From the UHGV virus genome UHGV-1832352: DNA of 18,550 nucleotides; one strand, given 5' to 3'. Under the pieces are notes generated by a model. That model did not search any database. It saw only the letters and a list, made by a program, of their open reading frames with translations, and was not told the origin of the DNA. Shown here one piece after another: positions 6,721 through 10,423 of this stretch. Numbering within the stretch: the first letter of the stretch is position 1; the number at the start of each line of letters is the position of its first letter. Position numbers and translations under genes: made by a program. The DNA comes from a virus.

Positions 6721-7378
6721 GCGTTAGTTTCTCCACAACCAGAAGCAATCGACGCCACGACGCCCGGAGCTGCACACTCGCGGGCGTTACTCTTTTCCGG
6801 CGCACAAAAAACACGAAATAACAGTGTTAAATGCTCCTGCCACTTCGCCATTACTTGGTAGCTGTTCTCTTCGATTTGCTCACGCTCAGCCTGGTCAATA
6901 ACTCCATCAGCAGTTGCCTTGCGTAAGTACTGGGAATGCTTGCCAATCCATTCTATTGACTCCATCAGCCGCTGATTAATGTCACCATTGTCAATGTCAT
7001 CAATGACCACCAGCGGCACAAACACCCCATTACTACGACGGGCTATTGCATCTGTTACATGCCTGGTACCACTGGCATCCTGTAAAACCATGGCCCACTC
7101 AAGTGGAAAAATTTGATCCCCACCGCTACGCAGTCTGTTATGCAATTGATCTTTTGCTGGGGTGATATCATCAGATTTATACAAACCAAGAATTTCTGCT
7201 GCTTCCTCATAGCCATGAGGTAAATCAGCAATCGTTCTTCGTATTGCTGCCACCAGCCATGCTGGTTGTTTATCAACTTTCCATTCAGGTTCTTTACCCA
7301 CGGTTAATTCCTCATTTCTGTGGTTACGTTTACGCAGCTGAACCGCTAACTTTTGAATAGCACTCAGGTAATCCATCA
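6717..7378 (-). CDS. Hypothetical regulatory protein in the cII position (YdaT/CII-like placement)
   Basis: Long ORF immediately downstream of the cro-like gene. Start taken at MMDYLSAIQ (7378); the ORF-track start at 7412 would overlap the cro-like gene more. Family assignment is tentative. Confidence 0.55.
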
Positions 7379-7593
7379 TTTGGATTGGGGTAAATATCAG
7401 GACGCAGTTCATGAGGGGTCACGGACCAGTTTCCCAACTCACAAAGTTGTAAAACCCGTTCTGACGGGACTTGATTGTTAATTACCCAATTAGCGACGGA
7501 TTGAGTGGACTTAAAACCAAAGCGACGGGCTACTTCAGATAAAGATTTTCCCGCAGCCTTTACTGCTTTCTCTGTGTAGTTTTGAGATGACAT
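7330..7593 (-). CDS. Cro-like HTH regulator (YdaS/DUF1019-type)
   Basis: 87 aa; ...SEVARRFGFKSTQSVANWVINNQVPSERVLQLCELGNWSVTPHELRPDIY resembles YdaS-family Cro analogs; divergent from the CI-like gene; SD GAGGAG upstream. Confidence 0.8.
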   Translation of the reverse strand: MSSQNYTEKAVKAAGKSLSEVARRFGFKSTQSVANWVINNQVPSERVLQLCELGNWSVTPHELRPDIYPNPNDGLPECYSKVSGSAA

Positions 7594-7601
7594 ACCTTTC
7601 T

Positions 7602-7618
7602 CCTCTGAAATTCAGAGG
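7602..7618. promoter_or_regulatory. Perfect 8-bp-arm palindrome CCTCTGAA-a-TTCAGAGG overlapping the cro-like ribosome-binding site
   Basis: Read directly from the sequence; 9 nt upstream of the cro-like start codon. Confidence 0.35.
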
Positions 7619-7625
7619 GATGATG

Positions 7626-7661
7626 CTACTTAAAATAGCAAAATGCAACTACTTAAAATAG
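7626..7661. promoter_or_regulatory. Right operator region: two copies of CTACTTAAAATAG, 23 bp apart
   Basis: Identical 13-bp sites at 7626-7638 and 7649-7661 in the cro/cI divergent intergenic region; partial dyad (CTA...TAG); the same motif recurs at 9567-9602. Confidence 0.55.
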
Positions 7662-7699
7662 AAATGACTAGTGTATGTGATGTGAGTAATCTTCTACCT

Positions 7700-8404
7700 A
7701 TGGTAGAAGAACAGAAGTATCCAGATTTCGCCAAGAGACTAAACGAGCTAATGACAAACAAGGGAATTTCTGTCACCCAACTCAAAAGTCTTGTGGGCGT
7801 TACATATGAAATGGCGCGGCGATACACAATCGGCGCTGCGAAGCCTCGTGCCTCTGTCATGAATAAACTTGCATTGGCTCTGGGGGTATCAGCTTCATAT
7901 TTAGAATATGGTGTTGGCGAGAGAGAAGGATGTAAGGAAATGGCAAGCATCCCCAATCCAACGAAACCCGATGTATACAGGATAGAAGTTTTGGATCTTA
8001 GCGTTAGCGCAGGACCTGGGACCTATATGCTTTCAGACTATGTTGATGTGCTCTACGCCATTGAGTTCACAACAGAACATGCCCGTTCTCTTTTCGGCAA
8101 CCGTTCTCAGAATGATATTAAGGTTATGACTGTAAATGGCGATAGTATGTCCCCTACACTCGTTTCCGGAGACCGACTGTTTGTCGACATTTCTGTTCGT
8201 CACTTCCAGACTGATGGAGTTTACTCTTTCGTTTACGGTAAGACTTTTCATGTCAAACGTCTTCAAATGCAAGGTGACAAGCTAGCCGTTCTTTCGGATA
8301 ACCCCGCCTATGAGAAATGGTACATCGATGAAAAATCGCAGGATCAGCTTTATGTAATGGGCAAGGCGTTGATTCACGAATCTATAAAATACAACCGATT
8401 GTAA
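7700..8404 (+). CDS. CI-type prophage repressor (HTH_XRE plus S24 LexA-like autopeptidase domain)
   Basis: HTH (ISVTQLKSLVGVTYEMARRYT), Ser nucleophile context MTVNGDSMSPTL and Lys context HVKRLQ. Start uncertain (7643, 7664 or 7700); no SD upstream, consistent with a leaderless cI-like mRNA. Confidence 0.85.
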   Translation: MVEEQKYPDFAKRLNELMTNKGISVTQLKSLVGVTYEMARRYTIGAAKPRASVMNKLALALGVSASYLEYGVGEREGCKEMASIPNPTKPDVYRIEVLDLSVSAGPGTYMLSDYVDVLYAIEFTTEHARSLFGNRSQNDIKVMTVNGDSMSPTLVSGDRLFVDISVRHFQTDGVYSFVYGKTFHVKRLQMQGDKLAVLSDNPAYEKWYIDEKSQDQLYVMGKALIHESIKYNRL

Positions 8405-8448
8405 AACTCAATCCTTTCAGGATTAAAAGATCTAAAAGGATAATAATA

Positions 8449-8811
8449 ATGAAATCTGAACTATTTCATAGCGAAGCAAATTCAGAAATTATCACTGCAG
8501 ATGAGTTTATTGATTTCATAAACTCTTTCAAAAAGCCTTTAATTTGCCAAATTTGCGGAAATCAATCATGGAGTGTAGTCGGTACTCTAGAACTTGAAGT
8601 TGAAGACAATCAGCCAAAACATCACGTAATCGAAGTTCTCAGCTATGCCCAATACAAACCTGAAACTGATAGCGCTATAAATTATCCTGGTGGTATGCCG
8701 CTGTTTCGAATCACCTGTGATCACTGTGCACATGTACTTCTTTTTTCTTATAAAAAAGCTAGATCATTGATCCAAAAAAGAAAAAATGAAAAAGAAGAGG
8801 ATGGGAAATGA
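8449..8811 (+). CDS. Hypothetical small protein with zinc-ribbon-like Cys/His pairs (CQIC ... CDHCAH)
   Basis: 120 aa; SD AAAAGGA 8 nt upstream; AT-rich by eye; immediately downstream of the repressor gene on the same strand. Confidence 0.7.
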   Translation: MKSELFHSEANSEIITADEFIDFINSFKKPLICQICGNQSWSVVGTLELEVEDNQPKHHVIEVLSYAQYKPETDSAINYPGGMPLFRITCDHCAHVLLFSYKKARSLIQKRKNEKEEDGK

Positions 8812-9440
8812 CGCGACCTTATCTCAGAGCAGTACCAAACTGTGGATCTGGTATTGATAAGTGTGACCTTTACCCCAATGTTAAGAACAGGCTGCGCGTC
8901 GGTATAGAAGAAATGTATACTGATTTTATCGAATCCGCAGATGAAACTTACAAAACTGATGGGGGAAATAAAATGTCATCAGTTAGTCGAGAAGAAATTC
9001 AAGCACTTTTAGCTGCCAATAAAGCAGAAATGGAGTCCATTGCATCCTCTATTAGAGTTGAAATGGCTTTATCTCGCGAGAACACAAACGTTCAGCTAGC
9101 ATCTCTAAATTCAGCCATCAATTCTATCTCTTCGAAAATCGAAGGCAAAATGGACAGTGTTGACGGGGATGTGAAGGCCATCAATGGTAGATTCGAAGGT
9201 ATACAAGGCCAAATTACTGGAATAAATACAGCCATTAGTGGTATTCAATCTGGAATTTCTACCAGACTTGCTATTTTTGGAGTTATCATTGCGGTCATAG
9301 TTGCATTACCTAGCATAATTTCTGCTTTTAAAGATACTTCGCCAGTAGTTCAACCAGTTACACAACAACCAAGTGTTAAACATCTCAACCAAGAACCAAT
9401 TACTCCACAAGTATTACCTCCGCAGGGAAAAGCAAACTAA
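8808..9440 (+). CDS. Hypothetical coiled-coil protein with C-terminal transmembrane anchor
   Basis: ATGA overlap with the upstream gene at 8808-8811; an alternative internal start at ATG 8983 has a strong GGGGGA SD; heptad-like Ser/Ile/Gln-rich region, then hydrophobic LAIFGVIIAVIVALPSIISAF, then a Pro/Gln-rich tail; followed by an intrinsic terminator. Confidence 0.7.
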   Translation: MTRPYLRAVPNCGSGIDKCDLYPNVKNRLRVGIEEMYTDFIESADETYKTDGGNKMSSVSREEIQALLAANKAEMESIASSIRVEMALSRENTNVQLASLNSAINSISSKIEGKMDSVDGDVKAINGRFEGIQGQITGINTAISGIQSGISTRLAIFGVIIAVIVALPSIISAFKDTSPVVQPVTQQPSVKHLNQEPITPQVLPPQGKAN

Positions 9441-9464
9441 ACCGGCTTTATGCCGGTTTTTTTC
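9438..9464 (+). terminator. Intrinsic terminator after the repressor-linked cassette
   Basis: CCGGC-tttat-GCCGG hairpin followed by TTTTTTT directly after the stop codon at 9440. Confidence 0.75.
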
Positions 9465-9566: not shown

Positions 9567-9602
9567 CTACTTTTAGTTGTTGATTTTTGCTACTTTTGGT
9601 AG
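9567..9602. promoter_or_regulatory. Left operator region: CTACTTTTAGTTG and CTACTTTTGGTAG, 23 bp apart
   Basis: Same CTACTT-N4-TAG-type motif and the same 23-bp phasing as the right operator pair; lies between the cassette terminator and the first early-left ORF. Confidence 0.5.
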
Positions 9603-9731
9603 CAGAATTATTTTAACGACAACGAACAGGCAGGACGCCCACGAAGTAGCCGCCTGGGGCATATGAAGTCCAGGATGATTCGTTGAGTCATGTTGTGCCA
9701 CCAGGCACTCATGTTAAAGCAGGTGTATGAA

Positions 9732-10007
9732 ATGAAAGTCCAGATTTTAAACAATAACTGTGAAGTCGTTTGGTCATACGACATAGCCGCCCCTGTAGAT
9801 CAGAGCGGCGATAGCTGGACCAATGGGAAACATCAGATTATGGCTGGAGTTGTATTCTCTTTACGCCGTGCTTTAGAACAGGCTGAAGTCTTTCCATCAG
9901 ACCCTGAATGGAAATGGCCTTTTTCTATTTGTCCAAATTCGGAGAGTACATTTCAGAAAATTGGTCAGAAAGTCGCACTCGAAGAGCATCAGCCAACTGT
10001 TTCCTGA
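9732..10007 (+). CDS. Hypothetical protein, first gene after the left operator region
   Basis: ATG at 9732 with AGGTG SD; 91 aa; no arginine-rich motif, so not obviously N-like. Its 3' end overlaps a convergent minus-strand ORF. Confidence 0.45.
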   Translation: MKVQILNNNCEVVWSYDIAAPVDQSGDSWTNGKHQIMAGVVFSLRRALEQAEVFPSDPEWKWPFSICPNSESTFQKIGQKVALEEHQPTVS

Positions 10008-10170
10008 TTTTTTCAGGTAACTCGTCGGCATCGCAGAAACAACAACGCTCGATCATGTTGAAAGCCGATTCGTAGAACTGTTTTTGCTGAGTGTCGCTGA
10101 GACAGGAAAAGAGCGACGTTACGATGATTTTATTAATTGCATTATCAAGTTCTTTTTCATCAAAAGTCAT
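9925..10170 (-). CDS. Hypothetical small protein (81 aa)
   Basis: ATG at 10170 with AAGGA SD about 8 nt upstream; acidic, protein-like sequence with a CCFC motif. Confidence 0.5.
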   Translation of the reverse strand: MTFDEKELDNAINKIIVTSLFSCLSDTQQKQFYESAFNMIERCCFCDADELPEKIRKQLADALRVRLSDQFSEMYSPNLDK

Positions 10171-10423
10171 TTGATTTTCCTTTTATGTATACGGGCTTAA
10201 AAGGATACCACCGAGCCTGAAGTGGTGAAAAGACAGGCACATAACAGCTAAGTATTTTCAACCAGAGAGAATCCTTAGCGTTGTGGTGAATGCGGCTCAG
10301 CGCACGCGGGTTAAGGTTGAGGCTGACAGTCGACCTTCTGTGGATACCCACCCGTCTGGTGTGCAACCTTCGCCAGGCACCGGGAGGCACCCGGCACCAC
10401 AACTTTATGCTGTGTGTAGTCCT

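Follow-up and report, generated by a model that had tools for sequence, protein, structure and literature searches.

The 106-bp intergenic region (positions 7594-7699) between the divergent cI-like and cro-like genes of UHGV virus genome UHGV-1832352, an 18,550-nucleotide stretch of viral DNA that we refer to as the window, is, with a probability of about 80%, the right operator and promoter region of a lambdoid prophage with a switch of the HK022/lambda type. This reading has two components: dyads with CTAC half-sites that would be bound by the CI-like repressor, and a palindrome that would act at the RNA level against the ribosome-binding site of cro on read-through transcripts. The operator set probably represents a new specificity within a well-known type of switch, and no description of such a specificity was found in the literature. 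A literature search with the operator strings returned unrelated papers alone; an analysis of e14 (PMC331406) or the genome paper of phage Aaphi23 (PMC490939) may discuss similar sites. The anti-ribosome-binding-site repeat, located in the discriminator of the rightward promoter PR, is the less ordinary part of the region.

The organization is lambdoid. A repressor gene encoding a helix-turn-helix and an S24 peptidase domain is divergent from a helix-turn-helix cro gene, with a short intergenic region between them. Three dyads (OR1, OR2, and OR3, starting at 7626, 7649, and 7694) overlap conserved -35 and -10 elements of PR and of PRM, the promoter of cI, and a second operator cluster (OL2 and OL1) is located at PL, across cI from the OR sites (table 1). 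OR1 and OR2 are 23 bp apart, start to start, as are OL2 and OL1, and a repeat search reports OR1/OR2 as a direct repeat of 16 nt at 94% identity. OR3 is centered on the A of the cI ATG (7700) and on the predicted PRM start. When up to one mismatch is allowed, CTACTT-N4-TAG has 10 matches in the window versus 2.3 expected, a count reached by none of 200 shuffles, and the dyad CTAC-N5-GTAG has 7 matches in 18.5 kb, 5 of which are inside the two control regions. Any pair spaced 21-24 bp apart occurs in 0.1% of random first-order Markov windows; the window has two such pairs and a third site.

We compared the sites across ~100 related (pro)phages. IMG/VR was queried with CI, Cro, and a conserved DNA block, yielding ~290 loci, with those of the conserved-block retrieval fetched by a pattern containing the OR2 ATAG half and adjoining AAATGAC/ATGAC bases. 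The comparison includes ~90 distinct intergenic variants from IMG/VR, all with the same site layout. Outer CTAC/GTAG bases and their spacing are kept, and the central 5 bp and the flanks drift. The center of OR1, for example, reads TTAAA, TTTAA, CTAAA, TTCTA, TATTG, or CCAAA in relatives, and linkers diverge too. The ATAG half of OR2 and the adjoining AAATGAC are unchanged in every CTAC-type relative examined, some of which were retrieved by those bases. Relatives with a CI 70-99% identical to that of the window represent 31 distinct site patterns, in which OR sites are at constant offsets from the cI start and OR2 has two or more mismatches in 4 patterns. The distance from the center of OR3 to that of OR2 is 45 bp in all relatives listed. 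In all 29 patterns (of the 31) whose fetched DNA reaches far enough, the two OL sites are exactly 23 bp apart and follow cI at 1.5-2.9 kb, depending on the variable cargo genes in between. The fetched phage DNA, 2.0 Mb in total, contains 543 perfect dyads that are partnered at operator spacing and 24 that are isolated, the latter corresponding to 0.12 per 10 kb versus a chance expectation of 0.15.

Natural domain swaps tie the type of site to the N-terminal helix-turn-helix domain of the repressor, independent of the C-terminal domain. The window CI, with recognition region GVTYEMARRYT, is associated with CTAC-N5-(G/A)TAG operators, as is the 76% identical CI of L053 (GVTYEMVRRYT; CTAC-type operators). 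The CI of Aaphi23 is 30% identical to the window CI and unrelated to it in the C-terminal half, has the recognition region GVTYEMARRYT, and is likewise associated with CTAC-type operators. Conversely, the CI of L070 combines a window-like C-terminal domain with an HK022-like N-terminal domain (LTPKAVSKWF), and its operators are TGAAC-N5-GTTCA, as annotated in HK75. HK639, whose CI is 59-60% identical to that of the window and has a third type of helix, has ATAAC-N4-GTTAT. As a separate observation, Aaphi23 (Pasteurellaceae; L288, locus 1495-1600) suggests that the DNA-binding domain moves together with its operators, as a module, across bacterial families.

Because of the phylogenetic footprint, the shared OR and OL geometry, the covariation with the helix-turn-helix domain, and the chance rate of isolated copies, the five CTAC sites are very probably CI operators with a distinct immunity specificity, which agrees with the role proposed for them in an original prediction made from the DNA sequence. 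That prediction had named two identical 13-mers, CTACTTAAAATAG, in the cro/cI intergenic region and a left pair at 9567-9602 with matching phasing, all of which can be read directly in the DNA. Its motif, CTACTT-N4-TAG, is enriched in the window and is better described as the dyad CTAC-N5-(G/A)TAG, as the TTAAAA center is lineage-specific. Lineage-specific too is the identity of the two 13-mers: it holds in the window, whereas most relatives have a perfect GTAG, versus ATAG in the window, in the cro-proximal site OR1. Both sites of its two-site right region are real, but a third, OR3, over the cI start, had been overlooked. The motif search across related prophages that it had suggested recovers three OR sites and the OL pair, and the motif is not similarly frequent elsewhere.

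Promoters were predicted from consensus elements, with 18 relatives aligned, and PR and PL follow a common design of site, TTGNNN, 2-4 nt, site, xAxxAT. In the window, PR reads OR2, TTGCAT, TTTG, OR1, CATCAT, and PL reads OL2, TTGATT, TTTG, OL1, CAGAAT. For PR, we sampled 65 distinct cro leaders, 47 of which form Class I, a class that has the TTG of the PR -35 by definition. Seven hexamer variants occur at the PR -10 among Class I leaders, all of the form xAxxxT. Two other candidates for PR were rejected: TAGCAT would leave a spacer of 14 bp, and TATTTT in OR1 or OR2 lacks a -35 and is not conserved.

The inverted repeat, which the original prediction wrote as CCTCTGAA-a-TTCAGAGG and correctly placed over the cro ribosome-binding site, folds at -10 kcal/mol as RNA. 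Its upstream arm (7618-7612) falls in the interval from the PR -10 to the predicted start, and its downstream arm (7608-7602) extends into the ribosome-binding sequence of cro, covering on the cro strand the first bases of GGAG (7600-7603). In relatives, 87% of pair cells are standard pairs, with one compensated pair, and entire arm pairs are swapped: CCTCTG/CAGAGG, TCCTCTA/TAGAGGA, CCTTGG/CCAAGG, CCTTCTG/CAGGAGG, GATTTC/GGAGATC, CTCTTGG/CCAGGAG, GTCATCG/CGATGAC, and others. Among the 47 unique Class I leaders, duplexes of cognate arms average -8.4 kcal/mol versus -5.3 kcal/mol for non-cognate arms, a result that none of 5000 permutations matched. Pairing is also stronger on the cro-sense strand (-8.4 kcal/mol) than on the antisense strand (-6.6 kcal/mol) because several variants use G·U pairs. 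Together, covariation and sense-strand G·U pairs point to pairing of the RNA, which would mask the ribosome-binding site or the start codon of cro.

In nearly all 47 Class I leaders, the upstream arm begins 1-4 nt past the predicted -10 hexamer. The first six bases after the hexamer are 85% pyrimidine, and 37 leaders have a purine at base 7, where transcription is expected to start. On average, leaders fold at -7.8 kcal/mol if the folded sequence starts right after the -10, versus -1.6 kcal/mol if it starts at the predicted transcription start. Since the upstream arm precedes the predicted start, mRNAs initiated at PR would lack it and the element would act only on read-through transcripts. 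In fold-back inhibition of IS10/Tn10, only externally initiated transcripts fold and become untranslatable. That mechanism was reportedly described by Davis, Simons & Kleckner in 1985, in Cell 43:379, a paper cited in PMC13181058. Our analysis suggests that the palindrome probably blocks cro translation on stray read-through transcripts in the same style. That Class I prophages in general shield cro with a fold-back element, carried as an anti-ribosome-binding-site sequence in the untranscribed PR discriminator, is a tentative proposal to which we give somewhat less than even odds. Equally tentative are the transcripts that might read in, which could be antisense through cI, come from cargo genes, or result from late read-around. 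An ECs1072-family gene (~9950-10384, minus strand, mapped from positions 11651-12085 of L001) is oriented rightward toward cI and cro, convergent with PL, and is a candidate source of read-through.

The covariation would fit equally well with a hairpin within ordinary cro mRNA made from PR, where it could throttle Cro translation or stabilize the 5' end, and the -10 kcal/mol fold of the window would hide the ribosome-binding sequence. Such a hairpin requires a start at or upstream of 7619, and an extended -10-like TGcTATTTT (7640-7632) within OR1 could set a start near 7625. However, the TG and the final hexamer T of this element are not kept in relatives, TTG-N16/17-xAxxAT does not vary at PR and has a close counterpart at PL, and both the distance of the arm from the hexamer and the purine at base 7 fit an untranscribed, pyrimidine-rich discriminator followed by a start. 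We consider a hairpin within the ordinary cro mRNA unlikely, and favor a palindrome that acts on read-through transcripts.

The original prediction had offered two options for the palindrome, an RNA hairpin and a second class of operator, and covariation favors the first, as pairing with the ribosome-binding site. In favor of a DNA operator for Cro or for the YmfL-like protein at the CII position, repressing PR at its start site, the palindrome is a perfect dyad in the window and occupies the position of the genuine OR1 of HK022 and HK75. Yet no second copy is present at PL or elsewhere in the window, and relatives with constant recognition helices in Cro (QSVANW) and CI differ completely in their arms (CCTCTG, CCTTGG, GATTTC, CTCTTGG, and others), making a protein-binding site unlikely. 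Several variants, moreover, are paired only via G·U on the cro-sense strand and are thus not DNA dyads. A second operator class is very unlikely on these grounds. Other identities considered for the palindrome were a terminator, which no U-run after the palindrome supports, and a LexA box, for which the consensus is CTG-N10-CAG, not the CTG-N5-CAG found here.

Least credible of all is that the CTAC sites are A+T-rich promoter or UP-like repeats, or sites of another protein, since, although they are A+T-rich, overlap promoter elements, and gave a hit in a promoter scan (TTAAAA-18-TAAAAT, made of the two repeats), the conserved bases are the G/C-containing outer CTAC/GTAG and not the A+T center, the site type switches with the N-terminal domain of the repressor, the same dyad occurs at OR3 on the PRM start and cI ATG, outside any -35/-10 spacer, and the dyad is also found in Aaphi23 with the same recognition helix.

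Several observations weigh against our reading of the region. Both OR1 and OR2 of the window have the weaker ATAG half-site, and part of the conservation of OR3 may be coding constraint because the site overlaps cI codons 1-3. All promoter and start positions rest on consensus, and the promoter scan missed PR and PRM because TTGCAT/CATCAT scores 7 of 12, below threshold. For the fold-back element, no specific source of read-through was identified upstream of cro: the ECs1072-family gene, the only rightward gene upstream, is absent from five other annotated relatives, and a terminator-like hairpin (9439-9459) that scores on both strands is located between it and cI. Lastly, Class II relatives, in which the promoter is shifted by 3 bp, lack the hairpin (cognate -2.8 versus non-cognate -2.9 kcal/mol).

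The proposed mechanism is as follows. Dimers of CI would bind the 13-bp CTAC-N5-(G/A)TAG dyads, and repressor at OR1/OR2 and OL1/OL2, 23 bp or about two helical turns apart, would shut off PR and PL, probably cooperatively by analogy with lambda and HK022. Repressor at OR2 may in addition stimulate PRM. OR3 could serve in autorepression of a predicted leaderless cI mRNA, in the shut-off of PRM by Cro, or in both, and a Cro of the YdaS type is expected to act on the same sites as CI. The cro mRNA initiated at PR would be unstructured and translatable, whereas any transcript that reads in from further upstream would fold back and mask the ribosome-binding site of cro.

Table 1. Genes, operators, predicted promoter elements, and inverted repeat of the immunity region, in order of position in the window.
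Feature	Position	Strand	Description
cro-like gene	7330..7593	-	Open reading frame of 87 aa; helix-turn-helix, YdaS family (Pfam PF15943, YdaS_toxin, E = 4.6e-11)
cro ribosome-binding sequence AGGAG	7600..7604	-	6 nt 5' of cro ATG (7593-7591); kept in all relatives
Inverted repeat CCTCTGAA-t-TTCAGAGG (cro strand)	7602..7618	-	Predicted to fold as RNA
PR -10 CATCAT (cro strand), predicted	7620..7625	-	17 bp past -35; predicted start near G7613
OR1 CTACTTAAAATAG	7626..7638	.	Imperfect CTAC-N5-GTAG dyad; occupies 13 of 17 PR spacer bp
PR -35 TTGCAT (cro strand), predicted	7643..7648	-	TTG in 18 aligned relatives; following bases vary
OR2 CTACTTAAAATAG	7649..7661	.	Abuts PR -35; ends 2 bp before PRM -35
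PRM -35 ATGACT, predicted	7664..7669	+	ATGAC invariant in aligned relatives (part of the retrieval pattern for further loci)
PRM -10 TAATCT, predicted	7687..7692	+	17 bp past -35; TAA-N-CT in 18 aligned relatives; A7700 is the 8th base downstream
OR3 TTCTACC-TAT-GGTAGAA	7692..7708	.	Perfect 17-bp palindrome; core CTACCTATGGTAG at 7694-7706
cI-like repressor	7700..8404	+	234 aa; N-terminal helix-turn-helix (Pfam PF01381, HTH_3) and S24 self-cleaving peptidase (PF00717, Peptidase_S24)
OL2 CTACTTTTAGTTG	9567..9579	.	Abuts PL -35
PL -35 TTGATT, predicted	9580..9585	+	TTGAT(T/A) in PL regions of all relatives but one
OL1 CTACTTTTGGTAG	9590..9602	.	Perfect dyad TGCTAC-N5-GTAGCA; within PL spacer
PL -10 CAGAAT, predicted	9603..9608	+	xAxxAT directly 3' of OL1 in nearly all relatives; predicted start near A9615

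A fourth, degenerate site between OR2 and OR3 was also sought; its best candidate (7668-7680) matches 5 of 8 bases, sits in a variable stretch, and was rejected. Within cro, codons 17-21 (7530-7542) contain a weak CTAC-type site, CTACTTCAGATAA, with 2 mismatches to the dyad, and several relatives read CTACCTCAGATAG or CTACTTCTGATAG (1 mismatch) at this position by way of the Leu codon CTA, a rare codon in E. coli. This site may serve as an additional operator of low affinity, somewhat in the manner of the HK022 OFR, or may be a coincidence of coding. A YmfL/CII-like gene is encoded on the minus strand along with the cro-like gene. An orthologous prophage in E. coli O157:H7 strain 146N4 (L007, locus 1049-2625) has an IS3-family element within cro and an intact cI and operators; this prophage is probably now without a lytic switch.

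The CI of the window is 42-43% identical over its full length to those of HK022 and HK75. At the level of sequence it has the features predicted to allow RecA-stimulated self-cleavage, and A104 and G105 (the Ala-Gly site) and S149 and K186 (the Ser/Lys dyad) are invariant in an alignment of the window, HK022, HK639, and Aaphi23 CI. A sequence search of PDB with CI returned nothing at E <= 0.001. The cI gene most likely starts at ATG 7700, yielding 234 aa: HK022 CI aligns from residue 1, and this start is annotated in all six aligned related E. coli genomes. PGAP annotates a start at ATG 7643 in strain PT62 (253 aa), but this codon is TTG in four of the six genomes. The 253-aa form would also place OR2 inside coding sequence. 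We saw no ribosome-binding sequence ahead of ATG 7700 in the window, and the cI mRNA from PRM is predicted to be leaderless, starting at about A7700.

Positions 7300-8450 of the window are 100% identical to E. coli strain PT62 in a megablast search of complete E. coli genomes. The PT62 counterpart is a lambdoid prophage beside a tRNA-Thr gene, adjoining proA. At the megablast level, 206 of 5426 complete E. coli genomes carry the immunity region, 204 of them at 90% identity or more, and no match was found when the region was compared by megablast with 50,697 phage records. Among otherwise near-identical prophages, the cargo between cI and PL (8449-9460) varies: the window has two hypothetical genes (8449-8811 and 8808-9440), and elsewhere a ParA-family gene or other small genes occur. 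Class II is a sister group (IMG/VR L147, L150, L183, and L199; Escherichia phage Phi06_2987 S, L289) with the same operators. Its PR appears to be 3 bp further upstream, with OR2 ending in GTTG, which gives the TTG of the -35, and with TAGTAT as the -10.

Just 3' of the predicted PL, positions 9623-9682 on the plus strand are a candidate for a conserved structured RNA at the 5' end of the PL transcript. Variants of its stem are fully compensated in relatives (CCTGG/CCAGG, CCGGT/ACCGG, and CCCCA/TGGGG), and 4 pairs of the consensus fold covary. The element is located where the putL antiterminator RNA of HK022 and HK75 and the putL-like RNA of HK639 lie; sequence similarity is weak, and no Rfam family was matched at gathering thresholds here or anywhere else in the window.

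Operators define an immunity group, that is, which prophages exclude or cross-repress one another, and their description aids the prediction of superinfection immunity. The repressor and operator pair, probably distinct in specificity from those of HK022 and HK639, is also a candidate for synthetic circuits. Among known systems, HK022 and HK75 are similar in having a homologous CI, dyads with a 5-bp center (15 bp as annotated in HK75, with a 13-bp core in the window), an annotated oR3 centered on the cI start, and one operator in the PL spacer with another abutting the PL -35. They differ in half-site (TGAAC versus CTAC) and recognition helix (TPKAISKWF versus VTYEMARRY), and the window is therefore not of the HK022 immunity type and would differ in specificity. 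Arrangement at PR differs as well. In HK022, the spacer holds OR2 and the start site is covered by OR1; in the window, the spacer holds OR1, OR2 is upstream of the -35, and the anti-ribosome-binding-site repeat takes the position of the start site. In contrast to HK022 and HK75, the Cro of the window is of the YdaS family.

Lambda has three OR operators, an S24 self-cleaving repressor, and a leaderless cI mRNA transcribed from PRM. The window resembles it in these respects, with the leaderless mRNA being a prediction, and in the divergent cI and cro genes, a PL operator set, and a spacing of ~23-24 bp. However, operators are 17 bp in lambda versus 13 bp in the window. OR3 of the window coincides with the PRM start and ATG and not, as in lambda, with the PRM spacer; the search recovered only two OL sites; and the OR sites are unevenly spaced (23 and 45 bp). 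Element e14 of E. coli K-12, hinted at by the 'YmfL' annotation, was rejected as a close relative: its CI and Cro are 33-34% identical over partial alignments, its dyads are of the TGTAC type, and it represents another immunity type, sharing with the window only the YmfL-like gene and not the immunity genes. Aaphi23 of Aggregatibacter shares the GVTYEMARRYT sequence exactly, and its cI and cro flank three CTAC-type sites, but its CI C-terminal domain is unrelated in sequence and its host belongs to another family. Its cI is preceded by a leader that includes a ribosome-binding sequence, which places the third site upstream of the ATG.

Prophage CP-933P of E. coli O157:H7, with its PaaR2/YdaS/YdaT system, is similar in having a YdaS-family protein at the cro position and a CII-position regulator downstream. 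The footprints of PaaR2 and YdaS overlap across PR and PRM, and the repressor mRNA was shown experimentally to be leaderless (PMC8630535). PaaR2, however, is not a CI with an S24 domain, and the operators are 18-bp repeats with another consensus; no anti-ribosome-binding-site repeat was found in the passages searched (PMC8630535). Fold-back guarding of Cro in lambdoid switches is likewise something for which no description was found in the literature. If true, such an element would mean that temperate phages use translational control to shield Cro from transcriptional noise, protecting the stability of lysogens. It resembles the repeat of IS10, in which the downstream arm is also over a ribosome-binding site and the upstream arm is ahead of the native start, a start that in the window is predicted. 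The two differ in what is protected, as IS10 protects against production of its transposase and the element in the window would guard a lytic regulator of a phage.

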